This document shows positions 2,189 through 61,107 of a stretch of 64,000 nt of DNA, in pieces (the stretch's first letter is position 1; the number at the start of each line of letters is the position of its first letter). Under the pieces are notes generated by a model. That model was not told where the DNA came from. It saw only the letters and a list, made by a program, of their open reading frames with translations, and ran no database searches. The position numbers were made by a program, and so were the translations under genes. This stretch comes from an uncultured Mycoplasmatales bacterium (GTDB lineage Bacteria; Bacillota_I; Bacilli_A; Mycoplasmatales; Mycoplasmoidaceae): positions 3,204 through 67,203 of the forward strand of contig CASPLF010000001.1 in NCBI GenBank assembly GCA_949422915.1, given 5' to 3'.

Positions 2189-3160
2189 ATGGAATTTATT
2201 AAAAAAACTATCATTGAAAAAATCAATAGTTATAACAAAATATCACTATTTTTTCATGAAGTTCCTGACTTTGACGCTCTAGGAGCGTGTTATGGTCTAA
2301 AACGTTTTATCAAGGATATAGCTCCTGAAAAAGAAGTTAAAATTATCGGTTTAGATATCATAGATGATTTCTTTTCAAAAGGATTCTTTGAATTTGATCA
2401 TACACATGTTGGAAATTCATTTATTAGTCAATCATTAGGGATTATCTTAGATACAGCTAATGAACAAAGGGTTTGAACTAACAGACATAGATATTGTAAA
2501 GAGTTAATTAGAATTGATCACCACCCACAAGTAGAATCAATTGCTAATATTGAATGAATTGATCCAACATATCCAGCAACTTGTCAAATGATTGCTGAAC
2601 TATTATTTGATTGAAATTCAAAATATGTATTATCTCCAACAGCAATGTATTTATATGCAGGTATTGTTACAGATACTGGTAGATTCTTACACTCTAATAC
2701 AAACCCATCAACATTAACAATTGCAGGTAAATTGCTAAATACTGGTTTTAATAGACAATCTATTAATGATGCTTTGTATTTAAGAAATTACAAGCAATTA
2801 AAATTTGATTCTTACGTTATTTCAAAAATTGTTTTCTTAAAAAATAAAAAGTTTGCTTATGCTGTTTTAGGAAAAAAATCTTTTGATAGATACGACATTG
2901 ATGTTAGAATGTCAATGGTACAAATTTTAAACAACATTGAAGGTGTTGAAGTTTGGATGAGTTGTTACTATGACAAAACCAAAAAATCTTGAAGAGGTTC
3001 TCTACGTAGTAGAGAATTACCAATTAACCAAATTGCTGAAAAGCATAATGGTGGTGGTCATAAATTAGCAGCCGGTTTCACTTTGAGAAACAAAAGAGAA
3101 ATTAAACAAATTAAAAAAGAAGTAATTCAATATTTACAACAAGTTCAAAAAGTTTATTAA
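2189..3160 (+). CDS. nrnA: DHH/DHHA1 family phosphoesterase (NrnA-like oligoribonuclease/pAp phosphatase)
   Basis: Track ORFs 2189 and 2645 are in the same frame and joined through TGA codons. Motifs seen are DFDALGA, DHHPQ (about 2518) and GGGHKLAAGF near the C-terminus. TAA at 3158-3160. Confidence 0.8.
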
Positions 3161-3184
3161 AAATTTATATATAATTAAATTGCT

Positions 3185-3418
3185 ATGAGTAAGACAAAAA
3201 CACTAAGAGTCTCTGATGTAGATCCAGAAGAATTTGAAAGAATTAAGGTTGAAGAAACTAAAGTAGTTAACCTTAAAGACTTAGGTGATTTATCTTCTTC
3301 AAATATAGATGAGGAATTATCTAAACTTTCAAAAAAACAACTTAAATATCGTTTAAAATACGAAGAAACTGATCCTGTAGTTATTGCTAAGATCAAAGAA
3401 CTACTTAGAAACATGTAG
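3185..3418 (+). CDS. small acidic hypothetical protein (77 aa)
   Basis: Intact ORF filling the gap directly upstream of dnaE. No recognisable motif. Confidence 0.4.
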   Translation: MSKTKTLRVSDVDPEEFERIKVEETKVVNLKDLGDLSSSNIDEELSKLSKKQLKYRLKYEETDPVVIAKIKELLRNM

Positions 3419-3423
3419 TAAAA

Positions 3424-6357
3424 ATGTTTATTAACCTTAATACACATTCATACTATTCATTATTAATGTCATCAATTACTATTGATGACATTATTAATTT
3501 TGCAATTAAAAATAAACAAAAATATGTTTCATTAATTGATATTAATTCAATGTATGGAACAATTGAGTTTTATCATAAAGCTATTAATAATAACTTAATA
3601 CCTGTCATTGGGTTACAAATAGAATATCAAAATGAAAAAGTCATTCTTGTTGCTAAAAATAACAATGGTTGTAAAAATTTATTTAAAATTTCTTCACTTG
3701 TAATGACTGATAGAGAATTAGATTTACCTCAACATTTATCAGATCTATTTGTAATTGTTAATGATACTTCTAAATGCTCATGAATAAAAGATCATGAAAG
3801 TTCTTTTAGTTTGAATCAAAATGCAAATGATTGCATTGCATGTAGAGAAGCATTCTTCGAAAGCAAAGATGATATCGAATATATTAAAGTCTTACACGCT
3901 ATCAAAGATGGTGTTACATATAAAGATGTAGGAGATTTATCAGAGTTTTCTGATAACTACATGTTAAATGAAGAACAAGCATCTAAATTGTATTCAGAAA
4001 AATCATTAGAAAATTTAAGTAAACTTTTAAGTTCATGTAAATGAACTATGGAATTTAATAAAGAACATCACTTTATTAAATACAACAAAAAATATAATTC
4101 TAAAGATTTGCTTCAAGCAATGTGTGTTGAAGGTTTAAAGAAGAGATTAAACTCTACTGATGCACCAATAAGCTACATTAATAGATTAACCCATGAATTA
4201 GATGTTATTGATAAAATGGGCTTTAACGACTATTTTTTAGTTGTTCAAGATTATGTTAGCTTTGCTAAACACAATGGAATTTTAGTAGGACCTGGTAGAG
4301 GTTCTGCAGCTGGTTCTTTAGTTTCGTATACATTAGGGATTACTGAAATAGATCCACTTCAATATGGATTAATCTTTGAAAGATTCTTAAATCCAGATCG
4401 TAATACTATGCCCGATATTGATGTTGATTTTATGGATGATCGACGTGGTGAAGTTATTGAGTATATTCATAATAGATATTCACAAGAACACGTTGCCCAT
4501 ATCTTAACTTTTCAAAAAATGAAAAGTAAAATGGCTATTAGAGATGTTTGTCGTGCTTTTGAATTTGACTTAAAACTTGTGGGATTAATTTCAAAAGAAT
4601 TCCCATCATCTTTTTTTGATTCAAGTATTGAAGAAATTATTAAATCTAATAAAAGAGTTGCTGAATATGCAAATAAATATCCAAAGATATTTAAAATTGC
4701 TAACAAACTTGTAGGATTTCCAAGACAAATAGGTCAACATGCAGCAGGTATTATTATTTCTGATAAACCATTAGATGAAATAATTCCAATCCAATCTTCA
4801 ACAGATAATATTTATTCAACTCAATTCTCGATGGAATATCTTGAATCTTTAGGTTTAATTAAGATGGATATTCTAGGTCTAGTAAATCTGGCAACTATTG
4901 ATCAATGTTTGAAATTAATTGAGCAAACAATTGGTCAAAAAATCAATCTTTCTAAAATTCCTTTAAACGACCAATCTGTATTTAAAGAGTTATCTAACGG
5001 AAATACACAAGGTATATTTCAATTAGAATCTCCTGGAATGACTAATTTAATTAGAAGAATTAAACCTGTAAATATCGAAGATATTTCAATAACTTCGGCT
5101 TTATTTAGACCAGGACCACAAAAAAACATTAATACTTATCTAGAAAACAAAGCTCATCCAGAAAGTATAGAATATTTAAATGATGATTTTAAATCCGTTT
5201 TAAGCTCTACATACAACATCATCATTTATCAAGAACAAGTTATTGAAATGGTTAAGCGTGTTGCTAAATTTAGTCTTGCACAAGCTGATATGTTTAGACG
5301 TGCTATTTCAAAAAAGAATGCAGATAAAATATCAAGTCTAAAAGAAAAGTTCATTGAAGGTGGGTTAAAGAACGGCTATTCACAAAAAGAAGTAACTCAA
5401 ATTTTTGATTATATTTATGAATTTGCTAATTATGGTTTTAACCACTCACACTCATTAGCATATTCATATGTAAGTTACTGAATGGCTTATTTAAAATTTA
5501 AATACCCATTGCAATTCTTTACAACTTTATTGTCATCTAATGACAATAGCGCTGATAAAATTGCTATGTATGTTGCTGATGCTAAAAAATGTGGAATCAA
5601 TATTTGTCCACCTAGCATTCAAGATTCACATTTCAACTTCAGTATTAAAAAATCAAAAATCATTTTTGGTTTCAATGCAATTAAAGGTATCGGTAGAGAA
5701 ACAATTAATAAAATTTTAAGTATTAGAAATCAACAACCTAATCATGAATTCAAGAATATGTTCTATGCTATTGGATTATTAGCAAATAATTCCATTGGAA
5801 TTAAAACTATAGAAATTTTAATCAAAGCAGGATGTTTTGATTGTTTCTTAGAAAAAAATCAAACTAGATTGTTTATTCTTAAAAACTTAGAAGAAATCTT
5901 TAAAGCAAGTAGGTTAATGAAACCTAATGGAGAATTTATTATTTCTCCTAATTTCGTTGAAATTATTCCAACAAATGAAGAAATCTTAGAATTGCAAGAA
6001 GAACAATTTAATTTACTAGGAGTAAATTTTGCAGAACATCCTGTAGTAACCATTAGAAATAACTACAAAGGTAGTGAAACAATTTCAACATTAACAGATG
6101 TTTCAAATAACACTTCTGGATTTATTCACTGTTTTGTTGTTCTAGACAGTTTTAGAGAAATTAAAACCAAAACAGGTTTGCCAATGGCTTTTGCAAAAAT
6201 AGAAGATGATACAAAAGTATCAGATGTTGTTATTTTCCCTGGTGTTTATACTAAAGCAAAAGGTATAATTAAAAAAGGTGAAATCTATTTGGTGTGCGTT
6301 AAAAACGCACCACGTGGGCTTCAACTAATGAGTATTAAAGAAATAGATCATGAGTAA
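3424..6357 (+). CDS. dnaE: DNA polymerase III alpha subunit
   Basis: Track ORFs 3424, 3811, 4048 and 5482 share one frame and are separated only by TGA. It has a PHP N-terminus (NLNTHSYYSLL), GPGRGSAAGSLVSY, the pol III alpha core and an OB-fold tail. Confidence 0.95.
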
Positions 6358-40687: not shown

Positions 40688-42514
40688 TTAATCATTTATA
40701 TAGAAGACGAAATTTTCTTTTGACACTTTTTCTTTAATTAATTTATCAATATATTCTTTTTGTTCTTCAGTTAAATATCTAAAACAATCATTAAAACAAA
40801 TAATCTTTGATGATTGAATATAAGCAAACATAAAGTTAATAATCTGTTGTTCATGAATTGTAAATGACGTTTTCATTAGATTTATATTAAAATAAGATAA
40901 TAAATCTTTTAAGACCATTATGTTTGCCTTAAGCAAATATTCAGCCGGAATCTTACTATCAGGATTAATCTTGATAAAATTATCTTTAAAATAAAACGAA
41001 TTTTGTTTATTAGGTTCATTTATTCCTAAAAAAGTATCTAAACCTATTTTAAAGCATGATTTAATGTTTTTATTTCTTTCAATACAATATGTTGTATTCT
41101 CATTAAAAAAATAAAGTGCATTTACATCTTCAATTTTGTTAATTGATGAATCTTTTATTCCGTTGGCGATATTAATAATATTTCAATAAATTGCTGCCAT
41201 TTTTTTATACTCCTTTTGTTTAGACGGAAATAGGCAAACATCTTGAACAGATGTAGAAAACATTCCTAATAAACTAATAATAAAAGTTAATAAACCAATA
41301 TTAAATTTATCGTTAATTAAATAATAGGCACCAAAGCCTATTGTTAATATGTAAGTGATGTTTGTAAAAAATGATTCAAAGTTAAATGTAAAATTTTCAA
41401 AGGAAGTTTTCTTTGTATAGATTTTTTCAAACTCTGTAATATTAGATCTTAATTTATTTAAATTAAAATTCAATAATTCTTGGTTTTCCTCTTTACTTAT
41501 CGAATTAATAATTTCAGCTGAAATATTGTTTGATATATTACTATTCTTGATTGATACATTAATATTGTGTTCTTTAAAATTGTATGTTACTACACCAAAC
41601 ACGGATTTTATTAACAAAACAACAATACAAAAAACTATAAACATTGGTTTGATAAACGAAAGAATTATTATTGTAATAACACACATTATTAAATCGGTAA
41701 TTAATGTAGGTATTTCATAAGTTAAATACCCGCATATTGAAACTATTGATGAATCAACTATATAAATAGAACTTAACTCGATCTTGTTGATAAAATGACT
41801 TCTTTTGTGTTTTAATTTGTTCAATAATTGATAATTTAAATGTCTAAAATTTTGTTTAAATCTAATAAGTGAATATTGTTTAAGAAAATAGCTTGACAAC
41901 AAATTTAATCCTCCAATTAATAAGAAAATAAAACATAGACTAACCAAATTTGATGTTGATTTTCCATAAACAGACATATTTAATGTTCAATTAAATACAT
42001 TTGCAAATAATGTTGATAATCCAATTATTAAAATGTGAATCCCTAATGTAACAGCAAAATATTTTAAATCAATATTTTGCAAATCTATTTTTTGGCTTTT
42101 ATATTTAATATTTACTTTTGATTTAGATACATCAAAAATAATGCCTGCAAACTTTTCTTTAAATTGGTTGTATTGTAGTTCGAATATACCAGAATCTGAA
42201 TCATAGATTTTTAAACAATCTTTCTTTTTGTAAACAATAATGTAGTGCATTCCTTGATTCTTATTGATCAACATTCCATAGTATTTATTGTTTTTAAGTT
42301 CAACAAACTCACTTCACTCACATTCATAGCTTTCAATAAATAATCCAAATTTTTGTCCTAAGTTCTCAAAATCAAAAATGCTTAAACCATTTTCACTAAT
42401 ATTTGCAGCATTAAGAATTTCAAATTTATTTGAATTATTGTAAAAGTGTTTCACAAAACTATTTATTACACAAATACCACACTCATTTGGAGAATTTTGT
42501 CTTGTTATTTCCAT
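40688..42514 (-). CDS. C39 peptidase domain + ABC-exporter transmembrane domain protein with a degenerate (motif-less) nucleotide-binding domain
   Basis: Track ORFs 42314, 41987, 41183 and 40688 are all in one frame. I translated the 40937-41182 gap by hand and found no TAA or TAG. The C39 triad context is present (RQNSPNECG ... GMHYIIVY ... YDSDSG). There is a 6-TM-like ABC membrane region. The C-terminal 170 aa aligns in outline to an NBD, but Walker A reads GINEPNKQN, the signature reads FTIHEQQ and Walker B reads IICFND. The start is taken at ATG 42514; a TTG at 42535 is possible. Confidence 0.8.
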
Positions 42515-42555
42515 ATTAAAAATAATATAGAACAAAACAAAGAAAAACCTGTCTC

Positions 42556-58266: not shown

Positions 58267-58425
58267 TTATCTAGATTCCTTGTGTAAAGTTGTTTTTTTA
58301 CACTTAGGACAATACTTTCTTAGCTCAAGTCTCTTTGCAGAGTCTTTGTTGACTAAGATGTGGTAATTACGAGAATTACATTCTTCACATACCAATATTG
58401 CTTTAACTTTCATATTCTTAGACAT
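58267..58425 (-). CDS. rpmG: 50S ribosomal protein L33
   Basis: MSKNMKVKAILVCEECNSRNYHILVNKDSAKRLELRKYCPKCKKTTLHKESR, with a CxxC...CxxC zinc ribbon. Confidence 0.9.
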   Translation of the reverse strand: MSKNMKVKAILVCEECNSRNYHILVNKDSAKRLELRKYCPKCKKTTLHKESR

Positions 58426-58427
58426 TT

Positions 58428-58450
58428 AAAAAAGGAGCTTTTGCTCCTCC
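58428..58450 (-). terminator. intrinsic terminator ending the four-gene cassette
   Basis: The minus strand reads GGAGGAGC-AAAA-GCTCC followed by TTTTTT, ending at the rpmG ATG. Confidence 0.55.
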
Positions 58451-58499
58451 CGTTAAATGTATTAGTATTATATACATTTATTTATATATGACACATTTT

Positions 58500-59090
58500 T
58501 TATAATTCTGAAATCAAACGATCTTTAGCCTTCTTAATAAATGTTCTAACATCATTGTAATATGTGTGTTTAGGGATATTTAATTTTTTAGTTATATGTT
58601 TGCTAGTTTTACCTTGTAATAACATATTAATAATTTTCACCGTTCTTTTCTTTTTATATTTCCTAAGAAATAAATAGAAGTCTTCATTTTCATTAATATC
58701 GTTGAAAAATGTTTCAGGTGTGTTGTAATCAATATAGTGATTTTCACAATCGCTTTTAATCTTTCCTATTGCTCTGCAATATCCATTATGTTTTTTCTGG
58801 ATTTTAACAAGTTCTGTTAATAACTGAAATTTGCAATTATTAAATAATAACCTTCTAAAAGAAATTTTGTGTTTTAACTTAGCGTATGTTTTTACTGTTT
58901 TATTTAATTGTGAATAAATTAAAGCATTAAGATCAATTAAATCTTTTATATTTTTATCACCCAATATTGCTTTGCAATATTTATGTAATTCAAGTTTGTA
59001 TTTTGCAAAAATAATATTTTTATAATTCATATCACTTTTGAACCTACTAACATTAATTGGGCGTTTAACATCTAGTTCATTCTTTAACAT
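58500..59090 (-). CDS. sigma-70 family (ECF-like) RNA polymerase sigma factor candidate
   Basis: 196 aa. The sigma-2-like segment is LHKYCKAILGDKNIKDLIDLNALIY...SFRRLLFNNCKFQLLTELVK. The C-terminal sigma-4 HTH is MLLQGKTSKHITKKLNIPKHTYYNDVRTFIKKAKDRL. Confidence 0.55.
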   Translation of the reverse strand: MLKNELDVKRPINVSRFKSDMNYKNIIFAKYKLELHKYCKAILGDKNIKDLIDLNALIYSQLNKTVKTYAKLKHKISFRRLLFNNCKFQLLTELVKIQKKHNGYCRAIGKIKSDCENHYIDYNTPETFFNDINENEDFYLFLRKYKKKRTVKIINMLLQGKTSKHITKKLNIPKHTYYNDVRTFIKKAKDRLISEL

Positions 59091-59091
59091 A

Positions 59092-59562
59092 TTATGTGTT
59101 GCTTAACGTAATTTTAAATTGATCATAATAATACTTTTGATATCCAGCACTTGGTATATACCAAACCAAATCAATTAAAACAGTGTCTTTGTTCGAATTA
59201 ATCCTATAAGATAATTCAAATTTATATTTATTAATTGAATATTTAAATTTTTCAATGTTTCCTACGATATTTTTAATAATTGTTTTTATTTCTTCTACAA
59301 ATTTTGTTTCATTAATTTCTTTTGAATATTTTTCTTGTTTTACATATATTGAAATGATTTTTTTAAGATCTTCATTTTTTGACAAATAATATGAAATCTT
59401 ATAGTGTTCATAATTATCTCCTCTGTTCATTGGTTTTCTTTGTTCTGGTTCGTCTGAATTATTTTTATTAGCTAGACTTAATCCGATCATTGCTGTGCTA
59501 CCAATTAATATTGTTGATAGTCCACCAGAAATTAAACCAATAGTCTTTTTTGATATTTTCAT
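59092..59562 (-). CDS. single-pass membrane-anchored hypothetical protein (156 aa)
   Basis: N-terminal anchor MKISKKTIGLISGGLSTILIGSTAMIGLSLA with no lipobox Cys. AGGAGG lies 10 nt upstream. The start overlaps the upstream stop (TAATG). Confidence 0.5.
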   Translation of the reverse strand: MKISKKTIGLISGGLSTILIGSTAMIGLSLANKNNSDEPEQRKPMNRGDNYEHYKISYYLSKNEDLKKIISIYVKQEKYSKEINETKFVEEIKTIIKNIVGNIEKFKYSINKYKFELSYRINSNKDTVLIDLVWYIPSAGYQKYYYDQFKITLSNT

Positions 59563-60605
59563 TAAAATACTACCTCCTTAAAATAATTGATATTGTCAAT
59601 AAAAACTTCCATTACTTGTAATTTTTTGTTTTTATAATCATCGTTGCCTTTAAAACTAAAATTGTTTATAAACTTTAGAGTTTTTATCACGTTTTTATAA
59701 AGAACTTTAATGGATATTTGATAATATCCGGTTGTTGCTAATGGACAATAAAACCCATTGACTCCATCGTTTTGATTTTCTACTTTTCCACTTGGTTCAC
59801 TAAAGTATGTACAAAAATCATACGTAAATTCTTTTGTTGAATCGCCATATTCTGGTGTTGTAACTTCATATGTTAATTCATTTTGTTCATGTCCATATAC
59901 TTGATATATAAAATGTACTTTTTTTGAAAGTATTGTGTAATTATCCTCAAATTGAATTATTAATAATTTTTTAATAGGTTCATCAATTTGATCAGTTTCA
60001 TTATTCATTGAATAATAAATAATTTGATCCTCGCTATAACTACCTAATATAGAATTCAAATAATATGAGTTTGATATGTTGAAGGTTGAGTCTTTGTTAT
60101 CTTTTTCTTCATAGTTTGAATATAAGAATTTTGTCTGTATTTTTTGTTGGTATATCTCGCTAATAAATTCGTTATATTCATATTGATCTAAACCAACATC
60201 AGCTCTGTCCAATATCGCATTATCTATATTTAAACTAAAGTTTAACAAGATTGAATAGTTAGTTAATGGATCTTGAAACAATTTAGAATCATTTGTATCG
60301 ATTTCAAAGGTACATGTATATTTGGTACAATAGTCTTTTTGGGTTACTCAATCAGGAGCTTTTTGCTCAGCTTCTGCATTTATTGAGATATCACTGATTT
60401 GAGTGAACTGTGTTGATAAATTTACATTAAATGTGTTTGTTGGTAAAAATAAGTTATTAATTAAATAAAAATTAATGTCAAAATATCATTTGTTTTCTAT
60501 GATCTTTAAGTTCCCATCAGAACCATCAATATATAACCACTTAAATTGATTAACGGGGTTTTCAACTAACCTTTTAACATAATATGTTGATGCAGCGGTA
60601 ATCAT
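59562..60605 (-). CDS. hypothetical protein (347 aa), no recognisable domain
   Basis: Track ORF 59562..60281 extends through TGAs to ATG 60605. That ATG is 1 nt after the upstream stop (TAGTATG). No signal peptide seen. Confidence 0.5.
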
Positions 60606-60606
60606 A

Positions 60607-60930
60607 CTATCTGTAATATTTAAAGAATTCAGATAATGCTATCTTTAACTTTGAATAAAAAGTTCCTCTTGAGCAATGATATTGATCATTACTTTTTTTA
60701 TCAAAAAAGCATTGAGTAATTATTTTTCTACTTTCATTTGATAATTCTGTTGAGATTGAATCAATCAAGTTGATATAAGACTGGTATTCTTTCATTCTTT
60801 GTTTTTCTCGCTTATTTAATTTGTCTGGAACAATTAGACTAAGCTTGAATTTGTAAATCTTATATAACAACGCAATTTCACTAATTTGCTTTTTGTCTTT
60901 TTTGAATTGAATTTTTGAATAATTTTCCAT
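60607..60930 (-). CDS. small sigma-region-4 / ArpU-like HTH protein (107 aa)
   Basis: ATG at 60930 has AGGAGG 7 nt upstream; the track's TTG at 60957 would include this SD. The C-terminus CSRGTFYSKLKIALSEFFKYY resembles the (S/T)xxTYYRxxKxAxxxL HTH found in sigma-4 and ArpU-type regulators. Confidence 0.45.
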   Translation of the reverse strand: MENYSKIQFKKDKKQISEIALLYKIYKFKLSLIVPDKLNKREKQRMKEYQSYINLIDSISTELSNESRKIITQCFFDKKSNDQYHCSRGTFYSKLKIALSEFFKYYR

Positions 60931-61020
60931 ATTTTCCTCCTTTAAGAAAATATACAAAAAATTTCAAAAAAATTTTATTACCAAAATTAAAATTTTTATA
61001 TAAAATTTTCCAAATTTAAT

Positions 61021-61058
61021 AAATCCAGATTTTTGTTATTTTAACAAAATCTGGATTT
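61021..61058. repeat. 13-bp perfect inverted repeat in the metK/cassette intergenic region
   Basis: AAATCCAGATTTT (61021-61033), a 12-nt spacer, then AAAATCTGGATTT (61046-61058). It lies about 90-130 nt upstream of the cassette's first ATG. Confidence 0.7.
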
Positions 61059-61082: not shown

Positions 61083-61107
61083 AAAAAAATCCTCTATAAG
61101 AGGATTT
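61083..61107 (-). terminator. intrinsic terminator downstream of metK
   Basis: AATCCTC (61088-61094) pairs with GAGGATT (61100-61106). The minus strand follows with TTTTTTT. Confidence 0.65.

Follow-up and report, generated by a model that had tools for sequence, protein, structure and literature searches.

This analysis concerns a locus in a 64,000-nucleotide stretch of DNA from an uncultured Mycoplasmatales bacterium (hereafter the window; positions 3,204 to 67,203 of contig CASPLF010000001.1, assembly GCA_949422915.1). The gene structures and junctions indicate that four genes at this locus, here called A, B, C and D, form a genuine chromosomal operon of an uncultured gut mycoplasma that is presumably transcribed as one unit. 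We suggest, with moderate confidence, that the operon comprises an ancestral trio, A-B-C, and a clade-specific gene for a sigma-like protein, D, that it would be driven by a housekeeping-type promoter and that D would be made by translational coupling. A and C belong to named yet uncharacterised protein families, and D is a credible but unproven candidate for a new, divergent member of the sigma-70 family.

The window is Mollicute DNA (27.5% G+C) in which TGA encodes tryptophan, and the open reading frames (ORFs) were re-called with genetic code table 4. In the table-11 ORF list B is broken at TGA codons, and table 4 restores a single reading frame. The four genes are closely packed on the minus strand, bounded by the metK terminator on one side and by a terminator immediately ahead of rpmG on the other (Table 1), and re-calling returned exactly the gene coordinates and lengths given in a preliminary description of this DNA. 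The same description had proposed coupling of the genes, and direct reading of the junctions confirms that operon-like coupling is real: A and B are joined by TAG-T-ATG, B and C overlap in TAATG, and C and D are joined by TAA-T-ATG, which places the starts of B and D 1 nucleotide (nt) past the stops of A and C, respectively. A GGAGG Shine-Dalgarno sequence precedes A and C (AAGGAGG in the case of C) and none precedes B or D, which makes termination-reinitiation after A and C the most likely way in which B and D are translated. In comparisons with the relatives L012 and L001, A has a ratio of nonsynonymous to synonymous substitution rates (dN/dS) of 0.09-0.12, B of 0.07-0.09, C of 0.03-0.12 and D of 0.16-0.19, i.e. 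all four genes are under purifying selection. Given that the ORFs are intact in relatives and that dN/dS is between 0.03 and 0.19, we conclude that A-D are real protein-coding genes. The flanking genes tsaD, metK, rpmG, secE, nusG and rpsB were identified by Pfam labels at orthologous loci and by tblastn. B and C have one TGG tryptophan codon each, and the flanking genes examined use TGA alone, the numbers being small. In one strain, which has a 596-kb contig (cluster members P0041 and P0052), the stop codon of C is replaced, giving a C protein of 165 amino acids (aa), and D is called from Met21 with 176 aa; Met21 is Val in L001, and the upstream ATG is therefore the conserved start of D.

Profile and structure comparisons point in the same direction for D. 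TIGR02937 (sigma70-ECF, for extracytoplasmic function) is the top NCBIfam match in four of the four D orthologs, with residues 27-192 in register with positions 6-165 of the 165-position model and E-values of 2.1e-6, 1.4e-4, 6.7e-4 (approximately 7e-4 for D of the window) and 3.2e-3. The AlphaFold2 model of D, with a predicted local distance difference test (pLDDT) score of 73, has a three-helix N-terminal domain and a four-helix C-terminal helix-turn-helix (HTH) domain, and the sigma-2-like and sigma-4-like parts span approximately residues 14-100 and 125-194, respectively. Among the top 30 Foldseek matches to this model in the PDB nearly all are sigma factors, aligned over approximately 190 columns with probabilities of up to 0.98; those named include SigH, WhiG, AlgU, RpoE, SigK, SigW and sigma-28. 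In addition, the sigma-2 domain of SigE by itself matches the N-terminal domain of D (TMt 0.70, root-mean-square deviation 2.7), and in BFVD phage ECF/sigma-70 factors come out on top, the best with E 2.7e-3 and a probability of 1.00. Inspection by eye gave two leads, which we treat as such: the N-terminal domain keeps what may be an ECF-like pattern (...LGD...DL... F78..L81..N84....E93..K96), and KRTVKIINMLLQGKTSKHITKKLNIPKHTYYNDVRTFIKKAKDRL in D may correspond to region 4.2. Together, these comparisons uphold the original idea that D is sigma-like, and D would be a very divergent two-domain sigma-70-family protein of group 4 (ECF-like) architecture, an assignment that is credible but unproven, sigma activity being putative. 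Similarly to the group 4 factors E. coli RpoE and B. subtilis SigW, D combines a sigma-2 and a sigma-4 domain in approximately 190 aa, and its best structural matches are ECF factors. It differs from them in that (i) it scores well below the curated cutoff, (ii) it has no adjacent anti-sigma factor, (iii) it has no recognisable autoregulated ECF-type promoter, and (iv) it is the last gene of an operon with a putative housekeeping-type promoter.

D is a sequence orphan. When 1.84e9 cluster representatives were searched exhaustively with HMMER, using a profile built from three D orthologs (E <= 1e-3), only the cluster of D itself was recovered, and word-indexed homolog searches returned close relatives only (two matches for D, six for B and three for A). 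The relatives of the four proteins are unnamed or annotated as 'hypothetical protein'. D and A are not detectably paralogous in their C-terminal domains (hhalign probability 0.5%), and neither has a paralog elsewhere in the window.

Several points weigh against the picture proposed here. Scores of the D orthologs on TIGR02937 are between 17 and 27.5 bits and never reach the curated cutoff of 42.9. The Foldseek E-values of D are weak (0.003-1), the whole-chain template modelling (TM) scores are low (0.3-0.4), and the underlying model was built from a shallow alignment of three sequences. Compared with PDB sequences, the D profile finds HTH fragments only (GerE and resolvase, E 0.37). No promoter motif that depends on D was identified, and no anti-sigma partner is evident, C and B both being conserved in lineages without D. 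The choice between gain and loss of D draws on five lineages and an identity-based tree, and DNA binding by A is deduced from sequence similarity. Finally, a palindrome upstream of the operon co-occurs with D and has no role in this picture.

The last of these points and the HTH fragments also bear on a different reading of D, namely that it is a one-component regulator in which a LuxR/GerE-type HTH is joined to a helical N-terminal domain and which would bind DNA by itself and act as a repressor or an activator, possibly at the palindrome. The best Pfam match of D is GerE (residues 148-176, E 1.5e-4 to 2e-3), and there are PedR and NarL-type HTH matches as well. The palindrome, which the preliminary description had noticed as a 13-bp perfect inverted repeat, is indeed present; core included, it comprises approximately 19 pairs with one bulge (-18.2 kcal/mol, z = -8.1). 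It occurs once in the window, approximately 70 nt upstream of the putative -10 box, and is found in D-containing lineages only. In L001 two bases are changed on each arm (GA>AT and TC>AT) in such a way that pairing, and thereby symmetry, is kept, and palindromes fit dimeric regulators rather than sigma factors. On the other side, the GerE matches do not discriminate between the two readings because sigma region 4 and the GerE HTH share one fold, while the full-length TIGR02937 register and the sigma-factor alignments of approximately 190 columns in two structure libraries take in the N-terminal domain, which by itself matches a sigma-2 domain. We therefore regard a plain HTH regulator as unlikely, though to be taken seriously, and retain the sigma-like reading of D. 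The palindrome might bind a protein or, on transcripts that read through from metK, form an RNA hairpin; no Rfam family matched it or the leader regions. A role as a second terminator was rejected, since the T-run is missing and a complete terminator already lies upstream.

The history of the locus was followed in the relatives recovered, which represent five species-level lineages and were arranged in a tree by metK identity: ((window group, L001), (L006, L009), L016). Exact or near-exact copies of A-D were found only in uncultured mycoplasma assemblies, including the mouse-gut metagenome-assembled genome MGBC110633. The relatives are labelled uncultured Mycoplasmatales or 'Mycoplasmoidaceae bacterium', and these labels speak against Mycoplasmopsis, in which the host had first been placed. 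In the window, L005, L012 and L014 (metK 98%) and in L001 (metK 92% identical to that of the window) the order is tsaD-metK-A-B-C-D-rpmG-secE-nusG. In L006 and L009 (metK 76-77%) tsaD-metK-A-B-C is followed by an unrelated ORF of 85-94 aa and yebC/ppa, and in L016 (metK 58%) the genes past metK-A'-B'-C' encode a 598-aa membrane protein and an acyl carrier protein. Thus, A-B-C lies downstream of metK in all five lineages with the coupled junctions preserved, and D and the adjacency to rpmG are limited to the clade of the window, L012, L014, L005 and L001. The idea that a four-gene cassette had been inserted between rpmG-secE-nusG and metK is not compatible with this distribution. Comparing the rpmG-metK interval across genomes had been proposed as a check for insertion; the part that concerns the position of A-B-C came out as conserved, in agreement with an ancestral trio, while D and the adjacency to rpmG proved to be clade-specific. 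Because a single gain compares with two losses, and because no D homolog was found elsewhere, D was gained rather than lost in our interpretation. By comparison of these gene orders, A-B-C is probably an ancestral, lineage-restricted trio to which D was appended at the 3' end in the clade of the window.

The slot that follows C has its own peculiarities. In L006 (9514-9798) and L009 (9531-9788) it holds unrelated small coiled-coil ORFs of 94 and 85 aa, respectively, which end in HGWIK/HKWIK, and the genes downstream differ (yebC, ppa, rnhB). The different genes past C in these two lineages place a rearrangement breakpoint exactly at the end of the trio. In L016 the 598-aa protein, which is a multi-pass membrane protein, and the acyl carrier protein occupy 3110-5172 after the trio. 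In Mycoplasma genitalium, MG_287, beside MG_286, is an acyl carrier protein homologue.

The proximity of a membrane protein to a sigma-like protein raises the question of whether C, or B, is the anti-sigma factor of D in a classical ECF sigma/anti-sigma pair. In favour of such a pair, C is the direct neighbour of D and coupled to it in translation, and it has one membrane helix with a domain outside: approximately seven N-terminal residues are followed by a hydrophobic helix (residues 8-30, approximately) and a DUF5452 domain that is predicted to be extracellular. The single N-terminal membrane anchor reported for C at the outset is thus borne out; the anti-sigma-like topology that had been read into it is not. 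Class I membrane anti-sigma factors have a cytoplasmic domain of approximately 80 aa before the helix, and the approximately seven cytoplasmic residues of C leave no room for such a domain, which argues that C is not a classical anti-sigma factor. Moreover, three lineages that lack D retain B and C at unchanged spacing, and the function of B and C therefore predates D and is independent of it. Overall, an anti-sigma role of C or B is very improbable. On Pfam PF17533 (DUF5452) C of the window scores 24.1 bits, slightly short of the gathering cutoff of 27, and two orthologs that are 58-60% identical pass it with 39.8 and 34.1 bits, aligning to model positions 56-168 of 169; the C homolog of L016 has no DUF5452 match, and the C profile found nothing significant among PDB sequences. 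C is therefore predicted from its sequence to be a membrane-anchored or exported DUF5452 protein. DUF5452 is an uncharacterised family, and membership consequently gives C no function.

For gene A, the proposal of a sigma-4/ArpU-like tail is supported and can be made more precise, in that A falls in the MG284/MPN403 family. On NCBIfam NF045770, which represents this family, A scores 44.2 bits over residues 52-106 (curated cutoff 37.3), and its orthologs in three more distant lineages score 51.4, 51.9 and 44.4 bits, so that A and its orthologs exceed the cutoff across the entire 57-residue C-terminal domain. The family, of which MG_284 is the founding member, has no assigned function and is variable in its N-terminal half. 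Weak matches in three libraries connect A to phage late activators: ArpU (best E 1.9e-4), RinA, DUF1492 (near full length, E 1e-3) and phrog_248 'transcriptional activator'. The best scores of A and its orthologs are 21.7 bits for ArpU (cutoff 43.1) and 19.7 bits for DUF1492 (cutoff 21.5). Like ArpU, RinA and DUF1492 proteins, which are approximately 100-140 aa long with a C-terminal sigma-4-like HTH, A aligns near full length, weakly and below all cutoffs (E 2e-4 to 2e-2); it differs from them in lacking a phage context and downstream packaging or lysis genes. These sub-threshold matches suggest that the C-terminal half of A is a sigma-region-4/ArpU-RinA-like HTH, and A is probably DNA-binding. 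Among PDB sequences the A profile gave nothing significant.

B was described at first as having no domain recognisable from sequence, and scans of Pfam, NCBIfam, PHROGs and PADLOC, none of which gave a family match, agree with this, as does the B profile, which found nothing significant among PDB sequences. The protein is acidic (isoelectric point 4.5), has no signal peptide and is present in four GTDB species only. Its AlphaFold2 model has a pLDDT of 61, with values above 80 in a C-terminal beta-sandwich (residues 205-320), and Foldseek returned generic tandem Ig/FnIII-like matches with TM scores of approximately 0.22. Since such generic matches at low TM were obtained with a low-confidence model, the fold gives no function for B; B is predicted to be a cytoplasmic beta-sandwich protein.

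Table 1. Features of the A-B-C-D locus, numbered from the first nucleotide of the window.
Feature	Position	Strand	Basis or description
metK terminator	61087-61107	-	Terminator scan, fold, conservation
Palindrome	61021-61058	none	Fold; D-containing lineages only
Putative promoter region	60941-60990	-	Consensus and six-lineage alignment
Shine-Dalgarno GGAGG of A	60936-60940	-	Direct reading; conserved in six-lineage alignment
Gene A	60607-60930	-	107 aa, basic; MG284/MPN403 family, putative transcription regulator
Promoter-like motif inside 3' end of A	60676-60704	-	TTGATA-N17-TATCAT; candidate only
Gene B	59562-60605	-	347 aa, two TGA tryptophan codons; predicted beta-sandwich
Gene C	59092-59562	-	156 aa; N-terminal hydrophobic helix and DUF5452 domain
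Gene D	58500-59090	-	196 aa, basic; sigma-70-family-like, two domains
Operon-end terminator hairpin and T-run	58422-58460	-	Fold, conservation

A terminator scan of the region found seven sites with 1.1 expected, and the two terminators that had been named as the bounds of the cassette are real, with hairpins and T-runs at 61087-61107 and 58430-58451 that fold significantly. The first consists of a 9-bp stem, a 3-nt loop and a T-run (-10.8 kcal/mol, z = -3.7) and sits 3 nt past the metK stop codon, which identifies it as the metK terminator and marks the upstream boundary of the regulatory region of the operon. At the second, the stem at 58430-58451 is the inner part of a longer helix (-23.7 kcal/mol, z = -7.3). 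Both hairpins are kept in L001, L005, L012 and L014. The longer helix pairs the start codon of rpmG (58423-58425) with an upstream ACAUUU, a TATAAT box (58467-58472) lies just before it, and this arrangement is kept in the same four relatives; helix and box could constitute an attenuator or a translational control of rpmG-secE-nusG.

Upstream of A a putative -10 box, TATATT (60949-60954), is preceded by TTG and by a conserved block, TTGGTAATAAA, at 60974-60984. In a six-lineage alignment TTGTA[TAG]nAT and TTGsnwAATAAA are conserved in species with and without D. From this conservation, the region is read as the putative housekeeping-type promoter of the operon, and the presence of the blocks irrespective of D argues that expression of the operon is not D-dependent. 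A second promoter-like motif, TTGATA-N17-TATCAT, lies approximately 70 nt upstream of B. Lineages with D keep both hexamers unchanged around a variable spacer, and lineages without D lack the motif, a pattern that is confounded by coding constraint on A. As a promoter of B-C-D this motif was set aside: it lies inside conserved coding sequence, and promoter-like matches are not enriched over shuffled sequences (33 found, 38 expected).

A phage or an integrative and conjugative element (ICE) had been named as the alternative identity of the cassette, and in this scenario A-D would be what is left of a mobile element, whether prophage, ICE or defence island, that carried an ArpU-like activator and a sigma factor with it. 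The weak resemblance of the tail of A to phage late activators and the phage origin of the best BFVD matches to D would fit such an origin, as would synonymous divergence (dS): compared with L012, dS is 0.30-0.56 in the four cassette genes, above the 0.03-0.20 of the flanking metK, nusG, rpsB and tsaD. The difference in dS, which is several-fold, suggests either that alleles were exchanged at the locus or that codon constraint is much weaker there. However, no integrase, direct repeats or attachment-site-like duplication was found at the locus, tblastn against 50,697 phage genomes gave no match, three IMG/VR scans recovered no relative of A, B or D, PADLOC gave no matches and a PHROGs scan no phage affinity. 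The locus keeps its place after metK in lineages with as little as 58% metK identity, the composition is native (overall and third-position G+C like those of neighbouring genes) and all genes are under purifying selection. In total, phage, ICE or defence-system affinity was not found, and a mobile origin is scarcely probable.

A further scenario links the locus to sigma-20 of M. genitalium. Sigma-20 (MG428/MPN626) is itself only distantly ECF-like, and its orthologues are listed in M. gallisepticum, M. capricolum, M. suis and an Acholeplasma and may be widespread (PMC4446450). The earlier statement that alternative sigma factors are very rare in Mollicutes was in this respect overstated: given MG428 orthologues in several Mollicutes (PMC4446450), such factors are uncommon rather than very rare. 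MG_285 and MG_286, which lie beside MG_284, are sigma-20 targets and are induced 16-18-fold via a promoter upstream of MG_285, and the same promoter is present at MPN404 (PMC6105099). For M. pneumoniae 10 putative transcription factors are listed, and the MG284/MPN403 family is not one of them (PMC6721554). In this scenario A-B-C is the counterpart of MG_284-MG_285-MG_286, and D is an analogue or diverged orthologue of sigma-20 located in its own target operon, which would form a self-reinforcing switch; in part the scenario overlaps with the explanation that we prefer.

In favour of this scenario, A is a bona fide member of the MG284/MPN403 family, the genes beside MG_284 respond to sigma-20, the host carries the label Mycoplasmoidaceae, to which M. 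genitalium belongs, and an acyl carrier protein gene lies past the trio in L016. D and sigma-20 also share properties: both are small alternative sigma-like proteins with distant ECF-like similarity in a Mycoplasmoidaceae genome, and both are tied physically or by regulation to an MG284-family locus (PMC4446450, PMC6105099). On the other hand, sigma-20 is encoded at a separate MG_427-MG_428-type locus whereas D is encoded inside the operon, D has no identified RrlA/RrlB-like partners, and D is confined to a single small clade of uncultured mycoplasmas from the gut. Moreover, B matches no NCBIfam or Pfam model. The D profile found no homolog among the 1.84e9 proteins, a set expected to hold the MG428 family, although MG428 was not compared directly, and a search confined to the exact consensus TTGTCA-N18/19-ATTWAT, without systematic coverage of mismatched forms or of the M. 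pneumoniae variant, gave no match in the window. Finally, the promoter region of the operon is conserved in species without D, which argues against D-dependent expression. We consider this scenario rather unlikely. Its extended form, in which D is a sigma-20-like factor that has diverged past recognition and was captured at the 3' end of an MG284-286-type operon, the operon is a switch for recombination or gene transfer, and the MG284/MPN403 proteins are overlooked sigma-4-like transcription factors, is speculative and in our view doubtful.

Two other genes of the window may be mentioned beside this scenario. A 615-aa protein encoded on the minus strand (40688-42535) has Peptidase_C39 and ABC_membrane domains and no match to an ATPase domain, and resembles peptide exporters of the SunT/MG_390 type; MG_390 is sigma-20-regulated in M. 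genitalium (PMC4446450 Table 1). A 281-aa protein encoded on the plus strand (173-1018) has a YqaJ-like viral recombinase domain.

Returning to the ancestral trio with an appended sigma-like D, we suggest the following model for how the operon would work. The housekeeping-type -10 promoter would transcribe A-B-C-D as one mRNA up to the terminator before rpmG. A would probably regulate either the promoter of the operon or one that serves B-C. The effectors would be B, which is predicted to be intracellular, and C, which would be outside the cell or membrane-bound. Since it lacks a ribosome-binding site and begins 1 nt past the stop codon of C, D would be produced at a low level through reinitiation each time C is translated. 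D would then direct RNA polymerase to other promoters and in that way relay expression of the trio to a regulon of other genes.

Genome-reduced mycoplasmas have very few transcription regulators, and to our knowledge sigma-20 is the only alternative sigma factor characterised in mycoplasmas. The practical reach of the present finding is limited, the host being uncultured, D being present in few closely related gut lineages and the functional steps being deduced. Within these bounds, D would genuinely, if modestly, extend the short list of such regulators in minimal bacteria. As a sigma-like protein that is an orphan by sequence, it illustrates that such factors can escape annotation entirely. 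Its location beside an MG284-family gene provides a testable hypothesis on the function of MG_284-286, in which the MG284/MPN403 proteins may be DNA-binding regulators.

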